Source: Acidimicrobiia bacterium (GTDB lineage Bacteria > Actinomycetota > Acidimicrobiia > Spongiisociales > UBA5794). Taken from it: a stretch of 34,384 nucleotides of DNA. The DNA is taken from positions 1-34,384 of the forward strand of contig JAQAZV010000260.1 in NCBI GenBank assembly GCA_032127155.1, given 5' to 3'. The position numbers and the translations under genes were made by a program. Below the pieces are notes generated by a model. That model searched no databases, had not been told where the DNA came from, and saw only the letters and a list, made by a program, of their open reading frames with translations. Numbering within the stretch: the stretch's first letter is position 1; the number at the start of each line of letters is the position of its first letter. Shown here piece after piece: positions 27,813-31,064 of the stretch.

Positions 27813-28418
27813 TCATCGACCGGGGAAGGCGGCCTCGAAGATCGCCGCCAGCTCGGGCGTCGATGGTCCGCTGTATCCGCAGTAGTTCACAACACCGTCC
27901 GTGGCGGTGACCAGGTACTGCTGGCCCTCCTGGAAGTCGATGCCACCAATCAGCGCCTCGAGGCCGTCGGGAGCAGTCACGACAACGGTGGCGGCATCTC
28001 CCTCGGTGAACCAGCGGTCGACGGTGAGGGTCACGACCTCACCTTCGATAGCAGTGACTGTGCCTTCGAACGCCACCTGCATGTCGACGAGGAACTCCAC
28101 AGACACCGGAAGGCACGACGCCATGGCGTCGCCGGGCCCGGCTGTTAGCTCCAGAGGTGGACCTGCGACAACATCGTCGGATGAGTTCGTCGCAATGATG
28201 GTGCCGCCGATGGCCACGGCGATGACCGCCACAGCTGCGACGGCCGCGTACCACGGCGTGCGTGAGCGCCGCTCAGGGGCCTGCGGCTGTTCGATGGTTG
28301 GGGTGGACATGATGGCCTCCATTCGGTGCCGCGACGATTCGCTCGTCACGGGTTCAGTTGGCACCTCGCGGGGCATCGGGTCAAGCTTCTTCAGTTGGGA
28401 TCGAAGATCGTCAGTCAT
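27813..28418 (-). CDS. Putative membrane anti-sigma factor with extracytoplasmic beta-rich (TIMP/NTR-like) domain
   Basis: Coupled to the ECF sigma by an ATGA overlap. Short N-terminal domain (DDLRSQLKKLDP), single TM (WYAAVAAVAVIAVAIGG), outer domain with two Cys. Confidence 0.7.
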   Translation of the reverse strand: MTDDLRSQLKKLDPMPREVPTEPVTSESSRHRMEAIMSTPTIEQPQAPERRSRTPWYAAVAAVAVIAVAIGGTIIATNSSDDVVAGPPLELTAGPGDAMASCLPVSVEFLVDMQVAFEGTVTAIEGEVVTLTVDRWFTEGDAATVVVTAPDGLEALIGGIDFQEGQQYLVTATDGVVNYCGYSGPSTPELAAIFEAAFPGR

Positions 28419-28966
28419 GGCCGATGCTCCTGGGTGTGTTCATCTGTTCCATGTCCGGCACTGCCCTCGTTCTGTCGGTCCAATTCGTCCGCCAGCTTCT
28501 TCTTCGCCCTTCCGAGCTTGAGGCTGACCGCATTGGCTGAGGTATCCAGCACGATGGCGATCTCTCGCGGCTCGAGTTCCTCCCATGCCCACAGCGTGAG
28601 CAGCTCGCGATCCGACTCGGGCAGGGCTGCCATCGCGTCGGCCAGGTGTGGGAACTCTTCCCGATCCATGGGGTCCCCGCTGATCGGGGTTGGTTCCATC
28701 GCTCCAGCCCTCGCGATCAGCTTGAGGTGGCGCGCATTGCTCCGACGCTTGTTCGCCAGCAGTCGACGTGCGACGCCGTAGCACCAAGGAAGGACAGCGT
28801 CGTTGGGAATGTCGTCGAGTCGGCGCCAGACGGTCAGCATGGTGTCGCCAAGCACATCATCGGCATCGTCGAAGGGTGCACGACGGCGGAGGTAGCGCTG
28901 CAAAGGCTCATAGACCTCGGCAGCGACCACCTCGAACCGGCGCTTTCGTTCCGATGGTGAGCTCAC
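28415..28966 (-). CDS. ECF-type RNA polymerase sigma-70 factor
   Basis: Region 2 ADDVLGDTMLTVWRR..WCYGVARR and region 4 LPESDRELLTLWAWEELEPREIA.VL..SANAV..KLGRA. 183 aa. Confidence 0.95.
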   Translation of the reverse strand: MSSPSERKRRFEVVAAEVYEPLQRYLRRRAPFDDADDVLGDTMLTVWRRLDDIPNDAVLPWCYGVARRLLANKRRSNARHLKLIARAGAMEPTPISGDPMDREEFPHLADAMAALPESDRELLTLWAWEELEPREIAIVLDTSANAVSLKLGRAKKKLADELDRQNEGSAGHGTDEHTQEHRP

Positions 28967-29031
28967 GACCTACCTGTGTCCGGCATACGGTCGATTCTGT
29001 CACGAAGGTGCGATTGCACCAGTGAATGTGT

Positions 29032-29271
29032 CTAGGCGCGTGCTCTCACAGCGCGGACACCTGGGGGCCCCGCGGCAAATCGGAGCTGTCCGACCGGGAG
29101 ACTGTGTGTAGTCCTCCCGGTTCGGACCAGAACCGACCAATCGCCGTGGATCGCTTCAACGCCGCGGAACTCGCCGGAGAGACTCCGGCCCCTGTTCGAC
29201 ACGACCTTGCAGGGCTGACCCATGATCAGGGCGTTGAGGAGGGATGGCCTGACGTTATCGATCGCGATCAC
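29032..29271 (-). CDS. Small protein, putative Sm/Hfq-like beta-barrel
   Basis: High GC3 in frame. GTG 29271 follows GAAGGG and overlaps the upstream gene (alternative ATG 29223). The pattern LLNAL..PCKVVSNRGRSLSGEFRGVE..SVLVRT..THSLPVGQLRFA fits a helix plus five strands. Confidence 0.5.
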   Translation of the reverse strand: MIAIDNVRPSLLNALIMGQPCKVVSNRGRSLSGEFRGVEAIHGDWSVLVRTGRTTHSLPVGQLRFAAGPPGVRAVRARA

Positions 29272-29449
29272 GCCGATTGCCCTTCTTGGGCTTCTTGGCA
29301 TCCCTCGTTGTGTTGTGTGCGTGCGCGAGATGGATGTCCATCTCGGACTGGCGTACGCGCATCGTGCACTTCGAACAGGTGGTGAGCGGGTCACCACTGC
29401 CCGTCGGTGCGTCGTGGGACGGTGCGTCGTAGGACGCGTCAGTCGTCAC
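29255..29449 (-). CDS. Small C2H2-like zinc-finger protein with basic tail
   Basis: CSKC-x11-HLAHAH followed by KKPKKGNRRDRDR. Its GTG shares one base with the RRM gene stop (TAG/GTG). High GC3. Confidence 0.65.
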   Translation of the reverse strand: MTTDASYDAPSHDAPTGSGDPLTTCSKCTMRVRQSEMDIHLAHAHNTTRDAKKPKKGNRRDRDR

Positions 29450-29697
29450 TACCGACGCTTGGGCTGGGCTTCATTGACGGCGATGTTGCGACCGTCGAGG
29501 TCCTTGCCATCAAGGTCCCGAATGGCGTCGCGACCCTTTGCGGAATCGGCGAGCTCGACGAAGCCGAAGCCCCGTGAACGGCCGGTCTCACGGTCGGTGA
29601 TCACCGCGACCGAATCGATGTCGCCGTAATCGGCGAACAGCGAACGGAGGTCGGACTCTGTGGCACTGAATGGCAGGTTGCCAACGAAGATGTTCAT
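29449..29697 (-). CDS. Single-domain RRM RNA-binding protein (Rbp type)
   Basis: RNP2 IFVGNL, RNP1 RGFGFVEL, DRETGRSRG and GRNIAVNEA. GAAAGAG RBS. Confidence 0.96.
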   Translation of the reverse strand: MNIFVGNLPFSATESDLRSLFADYGDIDSVAVITDRETGRSRGFGFVELADSAKGRDAIRDLDGKDLDGRNIAVNEAQPKRR

Positions 29698-29857
29698 TGC
29701 GAATCACTCTTTCTGTGGTGAAGGACACTGTGCCCTTCGTGGAGTAGATGTCCCGGAACCGACTCTGATGCAGTCCGGTCCGTGAACGAAGAAAGAACGA
29801 GTCGCCGCCGATGCAGCTGATGGTGAGGCTATCACCCTGCCGGCGCAACTCACCGTA
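29698..29857 (-). promoter_or_regulatory. Putative -10 box (TACGGT) and about 145 nt structured 5' leader of the RRM gene
   Basis: Minus-strand TACGGT at 29852-29857. Hairpins at 29822-29836 (GGTGA/TCACC) and 29720-29738 (GAAGGGCA/TGTCCTTC), the latter close to the RBS. Confidence 0.5.
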
Positions 29858-29975
29858 TCCACTCGCTTGCACATCTGAACGATGTCGCACCGATCCCTCC
29901 AGGGGGCGTCGCGCGAACCAGCGTCGATCGTCCCACTCCACCTGGTGAGTCCGTGGGATGGGCATACTGCACGTC

Positions 29976-31064
29976 GTGCCTGCACACATCGACATCGTTG
30001 CGTACCGATCCGAGTGGCCCAACGAGTTCCGTGGCGTCGCTGCCGAGATCAGCAGCGTCCTTGGCGATCATGCGATCACGATCCACCATATCGGCTCCAC
30101 CAGTGTTCCCGGTCTCGCTGCCAAGGACATCATCGACGTCCAGGTATCCGTCCTTGATATCGACGACCCTCATCTGAGGCCGGGGCTCGAGGCCGCAGGG
30201 TTCGTGTGGCGAGGCGACATCACCAGAGATCACACGCCGCCCGGAACACTCCCACTGCCCGAGGACCTCGAGAAGCGGTATGCCCAGCGATTGGATTCGC
30301 CCAAGGTGAATTGCCATGTCCGCGTCCCCGGTCGCCCCAATCATCGGTACGCGCTGCTGTTTCGTGACTTCCTGAGGAGCAGTGAGGCTGCGGCCCAAGC
30401 GTATGCGGAGGTGAAACGCCAATTGGCCGGTCATTTCCCCAACGACGTTGATGCGTACTACGACGTCAAGGACCCGGTCATGGACATCATCTACGCCGCA
30501 GCGGAGGGATGGGCTGCAACGACCGAATGGACGGAACCTGCGATCCCGATCACGGCCAGTGATTGGACACTGAAGCACCGACGCGACAGGGATCTCTTCT
30601 TCGGGCACCACTTCGCCTCTCCGCTGCCCGCGGAGGCACGGCCAGGGTTCTCAGGGCTCCGCTATTTCGACATCGAGCCGGCGTGGCGATGCGAAGGCGA
30701 GTTCATACCGATTGCCGAGCGTCTGGTCGATGTGCCCTCGACCTCCGGGGTGGCGAGCCGTTACCGACATGTCGGCGATGCATCGGTCGCCATTCCAGGT
30801 CACCGATTGCGACTCATGGTCCTCGACGACGGCGATGGCGGACGATTCATCCCGTTCACGGACGAGACGGCAGGTGTCGAGACATATGGCGGGGCACGCT
30901 ATGTGGGCATCGAAGAACACGGGGATGGCATGCTGACCGTCGACTTCAACGAAGCCCACAACCCGTGGTGTGTATACGACGACGAGTTCGTGTGCCCACT
31001 GGCTCCACCGCAGAATGCAATCGCTCTTCGGGTGGTTGCAGGCGAACAGGACTACCGACCCTGA
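29976..31064 (+). CDS. Fusion of GrpB/UPF0157 nucleotidyltransferase-like domain and DUF1684 domain
   Basis: N half: Y..EWP..F, HHIGSTSVPGLAAKDIIDVQV, LLFRDFLR, AYAEVKRQLA. C half: FSGLRYF, PFTDETAGVETYGGARY, DFNEAHNPWCVY..CPLAPPQN..AGE. Confidence 0.88.
   Translation: MPAHIDIVAYRSEWPNEFRGVAAEISSVLGDHAITIHHIGSTSVPGLAAKDIIDVQVSVLDIDDPHLRPGLEAAGFVWRGDITRDHTPPGTLPLPEDLEKRYAQRLDSPKVNCHVRVPGRPNHRYALLFRDFLRSSEAAAQAYAEVKRQLAGHFPNDVDAYYDVKDPVMDIIYAAAEGWAATTEWTEPAIPITASDWTLKHRRDRDLFFGHHFASPLPAEARPGFSGLRYFDIEPAWRCEGEFIPIAERLVDVPSTSGVASRYRHVGDASVAIPGHRLRLMVLDDGDGGRFIPFTDETAGVETYGGARYVGIEEHGDGMLTVDFNEAHNPWCVYDDEFVCPLAPPQNAIALRVVAGEQDYRP

Follow-up and report, generated by a model that had tools for sequence, protein, structure and literature searches.

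A putative RNA-chaperone gene set of RRM, C2H2-like zinc-finger and Sm-like proteins in an uncultured Acidimicrobiia bacterium

Introduction

How RNA is regulated in bacteria without Hfq, ProQ and CsrA is an open question, mostly asked of Actinomycetota, which to our knowledge have no Hfq. A minus-strand locus in the genome of an uncultured Acidimicrobiia bacterium raises this question in a compact form: an RRM gene, a zinc-finger gene and an Sm-like gene follow one another there and overlap. Do their three small products work together on RNA, or are the genes only neighbours? An initial sequence-only reading of the window (the whole stretch of 34,384 nt that was analysed, contig JAQAZV010000260.1) had proposed a small ribonucleoprotein or stress RNA-chaperone system that it did not recognise as described, and literature searches have likewise yielded no account of a gene set composed of an RRM, a finger and an Sm-like protein. 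The locus gives three items that lie outside Pfam, NCBIfam and Rfam: a C2H2-like mini-protein, an Sm-like family and a leader RNA.

Three overlapping genes

The genes of the trio are as follows.

29449-29697, minus strand, RRM gene (rbp), 82 aa, ATG start
29255-29449, minus strand, zinc-finger gene, 64 aa, GTG start
29032-29271, minus strand, Sm-like (third) gene, 79 aa, GTG start at 29271

The RRM and zinc-finger genes meet in the sequence TAGTG, in which the RRM stop codon TAG and the GTG of the finger share their G (overlap of 1 nt), and the zinc-finger and third genes overlap by 17 nt. The maximal ORF of the third gene (29032-29397) would encode 121 aa; its internal GTG at 29271, which gives 79 aa, is preceded by a Shine-Dalgarno-like AGAAGGG and is identical to the start of a public gene call (P0101, 79 aa, 99% identity). 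Junctions of the 1-nt and 17-nt type are seen again in relatives. The ORFs and overlaps of the sequence-only reading, which had described three tiny genes of 82, 64 and about 79 aa, are thereby confirmed, and so are the basic C-termini that it ascribed to all three products: Lys and Arg account for 4, 9 and 4 of the last 16 residues in the RRM, zinc-finger and third proteins, whose whole-protein pI values are 4.8, 9.2 and 11.8, respectively.

The RRM protein

Judged by its sequence, the first gene encodes a canonical RNA-binding protein with one RRM, of the bacterial Rbp type. It matches Pfam RRM_1 (PF00076) at 9.6e-23 with 80.3 bits (cut-off 20.7; residues 3-72 on profile positions 1-69 of 70) and NCBIfam NF058537 'RNA-binding regulator' (Rbp_regulator) with 115.6 bits (cut-off 100; residues 2-80 on positions 1-79 of 79). 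The RNP1 and RNP2 motifs on the central strands, each with its consensus, are the hallmark of the RRM; both can be read in the translation (RNP2 IFVGNL, RNP1 RGFGFVEL) and are invariant in nine relatives. The protein is acidic overall and carries a PKRR tail. Sequences in the PDB match it 161 times at E<=1e-8, and among the 60 matches listed all are RRM proteins. The genome holds four RRM_1 matches and none to Pfam Hfq.

The zinc-finger mini-protein

The second gene encodes, as its structural model indicates, a single C2H2-like zinc-finger mini-protein with putative zinc binding. A disordered acidic N-terminus precedes the single finger, and a Lys/Arg-rich tail follows it; across the family, the N-terminus carries a median net charge of -3 and the C-terminus one of +5. 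AF2 places strands at 22-24 and 31-33 and a helix at 34-44, with pLDDT of about 90 there, which corresponds to a beta-beta-alpha fold. The pattern C-x2-C-x11-H-x4-H is kept in all 27 family members, with C25, C28, H40 and H45 as putative ligands; a third His (H43) and E36 are invariant too. The classical C2H2 consensus is C-x2-4-C-x12-H-x3-5-H, and the finger misses this spacing by one residue in the middle spacer (11, not 12), while the ligand positions are invariant.

The protein has no Pfam match (0 families at E<=1) and no NCBIfam match. Its short relatives P0004, P0005, P0007, P0009, P0012 and P0022 have no Pfam match above cut-off either, and only long multi-finger relatives pass. A word-based search found three close relatives only, and an exhaustive profile search reached further: from 1.84 billion representatives it retrieved 83 proteins at E<=1e-3, with no fused forms among them. 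The profile also matches multi-finger proteins that lie above the Pfam cut-offs for zf-Di19, zf-C2HC_2 and zf-C2H2. The closest solved sequences are 9qf4_Bk (E 4e-4) and 9sra_Bk (E 1e-3), chains of 64-65 aa named 'C2H2-type domain-containing protein'; 6skg_Bo, a 47-aa 'Nucleic acid-binding protein, containing C2H2 zinc-finger', matches the profile at E 0.19. Foldseek with the finger model returned no row at E<=0.5, its best rows being C2H2 fingers at E 0.6-2. No paper on PDB entries 9qf4 and 9sra was found in the literature searches, and the available part of PMC10516650 covers aL45-47 and has no mention of a zinc finger.

The Sm-like third protein

The third protein is predicted to be an Sm-like (Rof/Hfq/WYL-like) small beta-barrel, with modest fold matches. 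Its AF2 model, built from 52 sequences (pLDDT 87.0, pTM 0.76), consists of a helix (9-12) and five strands (20-25, 30-41, 44-51, 54-59 and 63-67). In Foldseek the best match is YaeO (6jie; E 5.4e-3, TM 0.67), followed by Hfq, archaeal Sm and SmD1/D2, with nothing at E<=1e-3. VIA aligns the model with YaeO 6jie_A at Z 8.7 (rmsd 2.3 A over 70 of 77 residues), a value barely above the best Z of 7-8 that unmatched models typically reach; WYL domains (CapW, BrxR, DriD, PafBC) score Z 6.7-7.3 and Sm/Hfq Z 5.5-6.4, with dozens of Hfq, SmAP and Sm chains at TM 0.5-0.6. In the Atlas, the ROF cluster is reached at TM 0.74 and Hfq at TM 0.68. The model also resembles the C-terminal domain of RimP, and small barrels are common folds. 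The three patterns named in the sequence-only reading (RRM, C2H2-like finger, Sm-like) thus agree with the RRM_1 score of the first gene, the finger pattern of the second and the predicted folds.

At the sequence level the Sm-like family stands apart. It comprises 467 unannotated clusters with no Pfam match, and within the class Acidimicrobiia it occurs in 29 of 401 genomes, all of one order. Nothing above cut-off was obtained for Pfam LSM, Hfq or SM-ATX in the 52 members (SM-ATX is faint in four, best E 0.1), Sm1 and Sm2 motifs were not identified in the third protein, and a PDB profile search with the family gave only a BPL-like chain at E 0.06. The ROF family (PF07073) has no match in the genome at E<=0.01, with E. 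coli as a positive control. No longer or fused forms were found in the range 182-2000 aa, which is weak evidence. An Ala-Ala ending, which we take to resemble a ClpXP-type degradation tail, occurs in 37 of the 52 members. In the tree, a single split with support 99/98 unites the zinc-finger-linked members.

Linkage among the three genes

An RRM gene lies directly upstream of the finger gene in 10 of 11 loci from relatives, with RRM proteins 63-80% identical to that of the window in 10 of the 11, and 15 of the 17 loci taken from species-representative genomes show this order too; the two sets share some genomes, and the 17 loci are the yield of a pattern scan of 185,579 species genomes, in few Acidimicrobiia. 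The organisms are uncultured sediment and soil bacteria.

Around the Sm-like gene the neighbourhood is more varied. Among 30 loci, 19 have an RRM-bearing gene upstream on the same strand. The Sm-like gene lies directly 3' of a DEAD-box helicase with a C-terminal RRM in 13 loci, and five show the order RRM-finger-Sm-like. In four it stands behind an unknown 85-aa gene (itself after a Csp gene once and after an RRM gene once), in two it is divergent to an RRM gene, and six have none of these partners within 1.5 kb. The linked helicases are RhlE-like (below cut-off), and the helicase of the window genome itself combines Pfam DEAD, Helicase_C and RRM_1.

The RRM and zinc-finger genes are therefore the core pair (15/17 loci). 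The Sm-like family is wider, follows RRM-bearing genes of several kinds and joins the RRM-finger pair in a subset only: it is absent from 14 of the 17 RRM-finger loci and present in three, and the finger is absent from 25 of the 30 Sm-like loci. Since the trio is a minority arrangement, its parts can work without each other. For the conserved gene order that the sequence-only reading had put forward as a check, this means that the RRM-finger order holds up, whereas the place of the Sm-like gene behind it does not hold generally.

An ECF sigma/anti-sigma pair lies downstream of the trio in the window. It was considered as a part of the module and rejected, the genes 3' of the module being different in every relative examined.

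The leader RNA

Two further features lie upstream of the RRM gene.

29698..29819, minus strand, structured 5' leader of the RRM gene, conserved, covariance model R1
29826..29831, minus strand, putative -10 box, TAGCCT here and GGTAcGCT as consensus in relatives, 6-7 nt upstream of the leader start

The long structured leader noted at first sight proved to be a conserved element: model R1 matches 29692-29819 on the minus strand (128 nt) with 110.9 bits, and the pairing is conserved. The fold has a 5' hairpin (GCUGC-loop-GCGGC), a long-range helix and two internal hairpins. In the long-range helix the pyrimidine tract CUCGUUCUUUCUU pairs with the purine-rich Shine-Dalgarno region AGAAAGAGUGAUUCGC. 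Over 15 sequences, 75.5% of cells are paired, compared with 39-50% in slid controls, a count that favours the structure, as it was derived from one of the counted sequences. Seventeen pairs change on both sides, nine of them within the 12-pair anti-SD:SD helix. Of these elements, RNAalifold recovered the 5' hairpin and the anti-SD helix alone from the raw MAFFT alignment; both internal hairpins come from single-sequence folds and were then counted.

The minimum free energy is -45 kcal/mol for 128 nt, and the predicted pairing of the Shine-Dalgarno region stays above 96% between 5 and 45 C. Because the leader does not melt in silico over this range, a simple melting RNA thermometer is unlikely. 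Rfam gave no match at E<=1 on either strand of 28000-31000. Model R1 finds 15 places in 11 of 121 genomes, nine of them outside the training alignment, and each of the 15 stops where an RRM gene begins. The leader thus belongs to the RRM gene and not to the trio, and it is specific to one class of RRM genes.

The -10 candidate is a conserved block in an alignment of 17 RRM upstream regions and is proposed on the basis of conservation and position. The actinobacterial -10 form is TANNNT. A generic scan for sigma-70 promoters and terminators returned nothing on either strand.

Expression and coding-level conservation

Six metatranscriptome runs contain 53-58% of the sampled words. In one of them (X16) a contig of 1009 nt at depth 27.8 spans 28796-29804, from the leader to the third gene, and runs on into the ECF sigma gene; RNA-library contigs of this kind do not prove transcription, strand or a single transcript. 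Substitutions in the conserved parts of the X16 contig are synonymous throughout. In this run the region 29828-30100 has no coverage. The sequence-only reading had made its proposal depend on the downstream ORFs being conserved with the RRM gene and expressed; they are conserved with RRM genes and are found on RNA-library contigs.

Could one or both small ORFs be chance frames of a GC-rich genome? The 4 kb around the trio hold 57 ORFs of at least 30 aa, with many overlapping spurious frames, and neither small ORF has a Pfam match. However, both are conserved at the protein level across genera and families, both products have confident AF2 models, the Cys and His residues of the finger are invariant, and gene callers predict the same 64-aa (P0001) and 79-aa (P0101) products. 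Substitutions, moreover, are biased towards synonymous ones in the correct frames. In a strain contig of 98% identity, the two changes in the RRM gene and the two in the zinc-finger gene are all synonymous, and the third gene has four synonymous and three non-synonymous changes, the latter only in codons 7-8. Chance frames are thus hardly conceivable, and we regard this explanation as refuted for practical purposes.

A proposed joint function in RNA binding

On balance, the sequences and structural models incline us somewhat towards the view that the locus is an expressed, translationally coupled operon whose three products act together as an RNA-binding or chaperone set. Coupling would yield the three small proteins in near-fixed proportion. 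The RRM protein would be the core for RNA binding, a second RNA contact may come from the zinc finger and its basic tail, and the Sm-like protein would be an accessory. The function of this accessory may depend on the RRM domain as such, given that the genes of its relatives lie behind stand-alone RRM genes or behind DEAD-box helicases with a C-terminal RRM. Expression would be gated after transcription: the leader is predicted to lock the Shine-Dalgarno sequence in a helix with the upstream pyrimidine tract, so that a trans-acting factor would be needed to open it. The likeliest openers would be the RRM protein itself, in a feedback loop, or else a helicase or a factor of the cold-shock type. 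If the Rbp proteins of cyanobacteria and Bacteroides are a guide, the physiological setting is likely to be cold or another stress in which RNA becomes trapped in structure.

A more ambitious version, which we put forward tentatively and hold to be rather doubtful, is that in Acidimicrobiia, which are without Hfq, the RRM, C2H2-finger and Sm-like proteins would form a heteromeric particle that serves as a global RNA chaperone or regulator. The Sm-like family would then pair generally with RRM domains, also where these are fused to DEAD-box helicases, and the leader would be the particle's own feedback target.

The third protein could instead be a regulator of the Rof kind. According to the available part of PMC11018626, Rof, itself Sm-like, attaches to the N-terminal OB-fold domain of Rho and closes off the extended primary RNA-binding site of Rho by steric hindrance. 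The Sm-like protein would then be a protein-protein regulator and not an RNA binder, docking on the RNP-type face of the RRM, in the stand-alone protein or in the helicase, and blocking or tuning its RNA binding. Three routes agree on Rof/YaeO as the best structural match (TM 0.67; Z 8.7; Atlas TM 0.74), the RRM domain is the family's one constant neighbour in differing protein contexts, and the Ala-Ala ends would suit a short-lived regulator. Yet there is no sequence relation to ROF, PF07073 having no match in the genome at E<=0.01, and the margin over other small barrels is small. A pI of 11.8 also suits RNA binding, and so basic a protein would be repelled by a basic RNA-binding face, although the RRM protein is acidic overall. 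We consider such a regulator unlikely.

Work on the ribosome, with the finger as a small basic protein bound to the ribosome or rRNA and the RRM and Sm-like proteins assisting assembly or translation under stress, appears distinctly unlikely. It is brought to mind by the only solved matches of the finger profile, the small C2H2 chains 9qf4_Bk, 9sra_Bk and 6skg_Bo; 6SKG and 6SKF are cited as ribosome structures in the text available to us, 6SKF being the 50S subunit of Thermococcus kodakarensis, and the small C2H2 proteins of archaeal ribosome structures offer a parallel to the finger. The resemblance of the Sm-like model to the RimP C-terminal domain and the RhlE-like character of the linked helicases (below cut-off) point the same way, as does cyanobacterial Rbp3, for which the accessible portion of PMC12232666 describes association with ribosomes and with mRNA 3' ends. 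The finger E-values are marginal, however, and the chain name 'Bk' is merely suggestive; a finger restricted to few Acidimicrobiia (17 loci in the species-genome scan) is unlike a core ribosomal protein, and Bacteroides RBPs are reported, in the part of PMC13370968 at hand, to be unlikely to act in ribosome assembly.

It would be quite improbable, in our estimate, that the genes are mere neighbours with separate jobs, the finger being for instance a Ros/MucR-like DNA-binding regulator and the barrel a ligand-binding WYL-like domain. DNA binding is the classical role of C2H2 fingers, a multi-finger relative (P0028) has a weak ROS_MUCR match (E 4.2e-4, below cut-off), WYL regulators are among the best fold matches of the barrel, and each gene is found without the others in some genomes. 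Against this stand the 1-nt and 17-nt overlaps with similar junctions in relatives, the 15 of 17 finger genes that directly follow an RRM gene, and the separate branch formed by the finger-linked Sm-like genes. Neither small protein has a helix-turn-helix or another DNA-binding module, and the barrel is bare, unlike the multi-domain WYL proteins of the PDB list.

If the joint reading is correct and the proteins bind one another or have RNA targets in common, the locus would represent a bacterial RNA-binding assembly of a new type. It would also show a C2H2-type finger cooperating with RNA proteins, which is rare in bacteria. If it is not, the parts still annotate several hundred 'hypothetical' genes.

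Comparison with known systems

Eukaryotic particles of the U1 snRNP type bring together RRM proteins, the C2H2-type U1C and an Sm ring. The trio has the same three fold classes; the likeness is one of fold class only and is known here from genes and models.

The finger resembles classical C2H2 fingers (zf-C2H2, zf-Di19, zf-C2HC_2) in its two hairpin Cys, its two helical His and its predicted beta-beta-alpha fold. It differs from them in its 11-residue spacer, its third invariant His and an invariant Asn, and also in being single, bacterial, without a Pfam match of its own and, in 15 of 17 loci, encoded beside an RRM gene. In size (64-65 aa) and layout the protein equals the 9qf4 and 9sra chains.

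Rof/YaeO, which came first in three structure searches with the third protein, is of equal size and is likewise a single bare barrel with an N-terminal helix. The two have no sequence relation, and Rof is proteobacterial and acts on Rho, whereas the Sm-like family is confined to Acidimicrobiia and tracks RRM genes, not rho. With Hfq, Sm and LSm proteins the model has its topology in common, an N-terminal helix and five bent strands; in contrast to them, the third protein has no Pfam Hfq or LSM match, and the likeness is known from the monomer model alone. WYL domains, Sm-like barrels within multi-domain regulators that bind nucleic-acid ligands, match the model at Z 6.7-7.3; the WYL proteins listed in the PDB have 190-640 aa, and the third protein is a bare barrel of 79 aa. 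DUF3107, also a small actinobacterial protein proposed for the Hfq gap, was put forward as the actinobacterial Hfq in 2015 (bioRxiv 10.1101/026195, as far as its available text goes). As a relative of the Sm-like family, DUF3107 (PF11305) was rejected, with an hhalign probability of 0.3% for a DUF3107 alignment of four sequences; 39 of 41 relatives, the window genome among them (on its contig C204), have a DUF3107 gene of their own besides.

The closest known counterpart of the first gene is the Rbp family, which includes cyanobacterial Rbp and Bacteroides RbpA/B/C: about 80 aa, one RRM with RNP1 and RNP2, scores above both curated cut-offs and a long 5' leader of regulatory type. The parallel with Bacteroides extends to several RRM paralogues per genome in an organism without Hfq, and the RRM-1 proteins there are cold-induced, redundant with a Csp and feedback-regulated (both points from the available part of PMC13370968). 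The leader of the first gene matches no Rfam family, and while known Rbp genes are described as stand-alone, the first gene here is translationally coupled to two more small genes.

Layout of the module

The module lies on the minus strand of the window, where the sequence-only reading had seen three tiny overlapping genes for an RRM protein, a C2H2-like finger protein and an Sm-like protein behind a structured leader. The open reading frames of the module (ORF listing) and its neighbors are as follows.

29449-29697, minus strand: gene 1, RRM protein, 82 aa, ATG start
29255-29449, minus strand: gene 2, finger protein, 64 aa, GTG start
29032-29397, minus strand: gene 3, maximal ORF of 121 aa
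28415-28966, minus strand: ECF-type sigma factor (Sigma70_r2 and r4_2), 65 nt downstream of the module
27813-28418, minus strand: 201-aa protein with a weak anti-sigma match, overlapping the sigma gene
29958-31064, plus strand: divergent neighbor, a 368-aa fusion of GrpB (8.2e-42) and DUF1684 (1.3e-36) by domain search

At the junction of genes 1 and 2 (TAGTG), the last base of the stop codon TAG is the first base of GTG. A GTG at 29271, behind the word AGAAGGG, gives the gene 3 frame a 79-aa reading that overlaps gene 2 by 17 nt. Because relatives of gene 3 begin with Met-Leu-Asn where the window has Leu-Leu-Asn, the start must sit upstream of the latter. Position 29253 was ruled out as a start, its codon being GTC. 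A publicly available gene prediction (P0101), likewise of 79 aa, is 99% identical to gene 3. The ORF listing, the junction and the public call agree with the lengths and overlaps first read, confirming real small genes in tight coupling. No terminator is predicted between the module and the sigma/anti-sigma pair, which is not kept beside the module in relatives.

The three proteins

Gene 1 encodes a canonical RRM protein, as both Pfam (RRM_1, 9.6e-23) and NCBIfam bear out, the latter with 115.6 bits for NF058537, 'RNA-binding regulator' (cut-off 100); it also matches 161 PDB sequences at E<=1e-8. The window genome has four RRM_1 matches in all, one of them inside a DEAD-box helicase on contig C139, which faces a further RRM gene.

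Gene 2 has no match in Pfam or NCBIfam. In alignment with its relatives, C25, C28, E36, H40, H43 and H45 are invariant and N46 is nearly so, and the spacing C-x2-C-x11-H-x4-H is found in all 27 members. The family has an acidic N-terminus (median net charge -3) and a basic tail (+5). AlphaFold2 (27 sequences) predicts a hairpin (22-24 and 31-33) and a helix (34-44) at pLDDT ~90 between disordered ends, and Foldseek returns only weak rows for this model, which are nevertheless C2H2 fingers. The invariant Cys/His residues and the predicted fold argue for the C2H2-like finger first proposed. Searched against 1.84 billion representatives, the finger profile matches 83 proteins at E<=1e-3 (26 at E<=1e-10), of which 24 are short single-finger proteins of 34-92 aa; the others, all longer, contain 2-6 matching stretches in most cases. 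In scans of five long relatives, the Pfam cut-offs for zf-Di19, zf-C2HC_2 or zf-C2H2 were passed or nearly reached. Long matches such as P0016 (404 aa) and P0023 (292 aa) carry 3-6 finger repeats parted by linkers, with the repeat C-P-x-C-G-x-K/Q-V-R-x-D/G-R-L-x-x-H-L...H of the same finger type; the window's finger variant exists also as arrays.

Gene 3 has no family match, and among 52 relatives only faint matches below cut-off were found (DUF4444 in seven, SM-ATX in four). A search with its profile, built on 9 sequences, yields 467 clusters at E<=1e-3. Of these, the 120 that were listed range from 59 to 103 aa, lack a Pfam domain and are 'hypothetical protein' where named, and the few named sources among them are Actinomycetota or Acidimicrobiia MAGs. 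The AlphaFold2 model (52 sequences; pLDDT 87.0, pTM 0.76) is made up of a short helix (9-12) and, after it, five strands. Foldseek gives no PDB match at E<=1e-3; YaeO/Rof heads its list (6jie, E 5.4e-3, TM 0.67), followed by many Hfq chains, archaeal Sm proteins, human SmD1/D2 and RimP. An exhaustive structural aligner, for which a best Z of 7-8 is typical of models without a true match, gives Z 8.7 for YaeO (rmsd 2.3 A, 70 residues), 6.7-7.3 for the WYL domains of CapW, BrxR, DriD and PafBC, and 5.5-6.4 for Sm/Hfq/LSm; therefore gene 3 is called an Sm-like small barrel, as its model suggests, and is not assigned to one family. The ESM Atlas places it near a ROF cluster (TM 0.74) and Hfq (TM 0.68). 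The Sm-like assignment is thus supported at the level of the predicted fold. Pfam Hfq and ROF have no match in the window genome (92% complete).

An Ala-Ala end occurs in 37 of the 52 Sm-like family proteins (alignment A3), typically ...PTAA or ...SIAAA, which we take to be reminiscent of the ssrA-type ClpXP degradation tail. The window copy ends ...VRAVRARA, unlike this majority.

The leader RNA

Seventeen distinct RRM genes have in common an upstream block that lies about 130 nt ahead of the ATG. Folded one by one, the sequences converge on a 5' hairpin, two inner hairpins and a long-range helix, in which a pyrimidine tract pairs with the purine-rich Shine-Dalgarno (SD) region and bases up to the start codon. 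In 15 sequences, 75.5% of cells are paired, against 39-50% with partners slid 1-3 columns, a count biased in favor of the structure, which was derived from one of these sequences. Both sides have changed in 17 pairs, nine of them in the 12-pair anti-SD helix, and the covariation score was reached by none of 500 shuffles. The leader has no Rfam match; its covariance model, R1, finds it at 29692-29819 (110.9 bits). A second copy in the window genome (L056, C62:3198-3534, plus strand; E 3.5e-10) directly precedes a second RRM gene of 81 aa that has no finger or Sm-like gene behind it. Among 121 genomes of the order, R1 matches 15 places in 11 genomes, nine of the places outside the training alignment, and all 15 end at an RRM gene start, whatever gene comes next. 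The common fold, covariation and matches before RRM genes substantiate the structured leader, which, as modeled, is a conserved SD-sequestering element specific to this RRM class. The predicted pairing of the SD stays above 96% between 5 and 45 C. A leader that works as a switch would have to be opened by some factor.

Conservation and gene linkage

The finger is recurrently linked to an RRM gene, and the Sm-like family to RRM-bearing genes. The finger protein is matched in 13 of 41 related genomes, a set that includes the unpublished G027 and G038, on which no particular claim depends: in 8/9 other genomes of the genus, 12/24 of the family and 0/16 outside the family. In 10 of 11 loci of relatives, the gene just before the finger gene is an RRM gene with 63-80% identity to that of the window, the junctions again touching or overlapping. 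When 185,579 species, each represented by one genome, were scanned for the finger pattern, 17 finger loci were obtained, partly from the same genomes as that search, all in Acidimicrobiia MAGs bar one weak Acidobacteriaceae match; a same-strand RRM gene is directly upstream in 15, and the finger/Sm-like pair is present in three.

The Sm-like profile matches 29 of 401 genomes across the class, all in one order (taxonomic families f1 10/25, f3 5/48, f9 1/12, f12 7/9, f5 3/3 and f6 2/5; none elsewhere).

Table. Contexts of the Sm-like gene in 30 loci (L025-L054, the window's own included)
DEAD-box helicase with C-terminal RRM directly upstream: 13
RRM-finger-Sm-like: 5
Behind an 85-aa gene without a known family (a Csp gene ahead of it in one case, an RRM gene in one): 4
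Divergent to an RRM gene and 85-aa gene: 2
No such neighbor within 1.5 kb: 6

An RRM-bearing gene lies upstream in the same orientation in 19 of these 30 loci, and within 1.5 kb in 21. The window genome's own helicase has DEAD, Helicase_C and RRM_1 domains (Pfam), its best NCBIfam rows being RhlE-type and below cut-off. The five finger-linked members group in one split (support 99/98) of a maximum-likelihood tree built from the 30 proteins, a tree whose bootstrap had not completely settled and in which the window protein has a long branch. The conserved gene order expected for the module holds for its pairs, finger after RRM (15/17) and Sm-like after an RRM-bearing gene (19/30), but the full trio is limited to 5/30 Sm-like loci.

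L074, on a 4.16 Mb contig of an Acidimicrobiia MAG, has RRM-finger-Sm-like-RRM-RRM-RRM-finger-Csp on one strand (369-2960), and L075/L094 have a shorter version, RRM-RRM-finger-Csp. The one clear finger gene with no RRM gene upstream is at L006/L063 (G011 contig C8) and has a longer N-terminus (71 aa); the gene before it may be phosphoribosyltransferase-like, judging by its translation. At L018:1504-2004 (plus strand; G024 contig C87), the Sm-like frame is broken after about 38 residues, resumes in another frame and extends into a second RRM gene; the break reflects a frameshift, faulty assembly or decay of this copy. The 85-aa protein, with a basic N-terminus (L019:1085-1339, plus strand; relatives in L032, L034, L045, L047, L051, L053, L086 and L089), has no Pfam or NCBIfam match. 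Its gene recurs directly behind RRM or Csp genes and ahead of Sm-like genes, and these proteins are a third unannotated small family in such neighborhoods.

Expression

Six metatranscriptome runs contain 53-58% of the sampled words of 28950-29900, and each of the four compared with the window has contigs that cover the three genes in part or in full. In run X16, a 1009-nt contig (depth 27.8) covers 28796-29804: it begins about 15 nt inside the predicted leader, crosses all three genes and enters the ECF sigma gene, while 29828-30100, on the divergent GrpB side, is uncovered. It differs from the window at 21 positions. Both differences in the RRM gene and both in the finger gene are synonymous; gene 3 has four synonymous and three non-synonymous differences, the latter confined to codons 7-8, within the disordered N-terminus, and the sigma gene four and two. 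The other four are intergenic, three between gene 3 and the sigma gene and one in the leader. Expression of the module is supported by these RNA-library contigs but not proven, since DNA may contaminate such libraries, and strand, ends and a single transcript are not readable from contigs.

Proposed function and relation to known systems

The predicted folds, coupling, linkage and leader behind the proposed RNA-chaperone module have held up, and joint action on RNA is what we infer from them: the three proteins would act together on RNA in a chaperone-type role, a reading to which we give somewhat better than even chances. The DEAD-box helicase and Csp neighbors point to this role too. Published work on bacterial RRM proteins fits it as well: Bacteroides RRM-1 proteins are reported to be induced by cold, under feedback regulation and redundant with a cold-shock protein (PMC13370968), and cyanobacterial Rbp3 to be associated with ribosomes and mRNA 3' ends (PMC12232666).

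In the main alternative, the Sm-like protein would regulate the RRM domain rather than bind RNA, in the way that Rof acts on Rho. Rof is reported to block the OB-fold RNA site of Rho (PMC11018626), and we regard such a role here as unlikely. A ribosome-centered role of the finger protein seems slightly less probable still. It would rest on marginal PDB matches of the finger profile to 64-65-aa 'C2H2-type domain-containing protein' chains (9qf4_Bk, E 4e-4; 9sra_Bk, E 1e-3), with only a faint match to 6skg_Bo (E 0.19); 6SKG and 6SKF are described as ribosome structures in two preprints.

Literature searches turned up no description of an RRM-finger-Sm-like gene set, in keeping with the sequence-only reading. 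The fold classes of the parts are known; the two small families, the leader and the combination are undescribed. DUF3107, which a 2015 proposal (10.1101/026195) put forward as the actinobacterial Hfq, is a different protein from the window's Sm-like one: it was rejected as a relative (hhalign 0.3%), and a separate DUF3107 is present in 39 of the 41 related genomes, a tally in which G027 and G038 are again counted.
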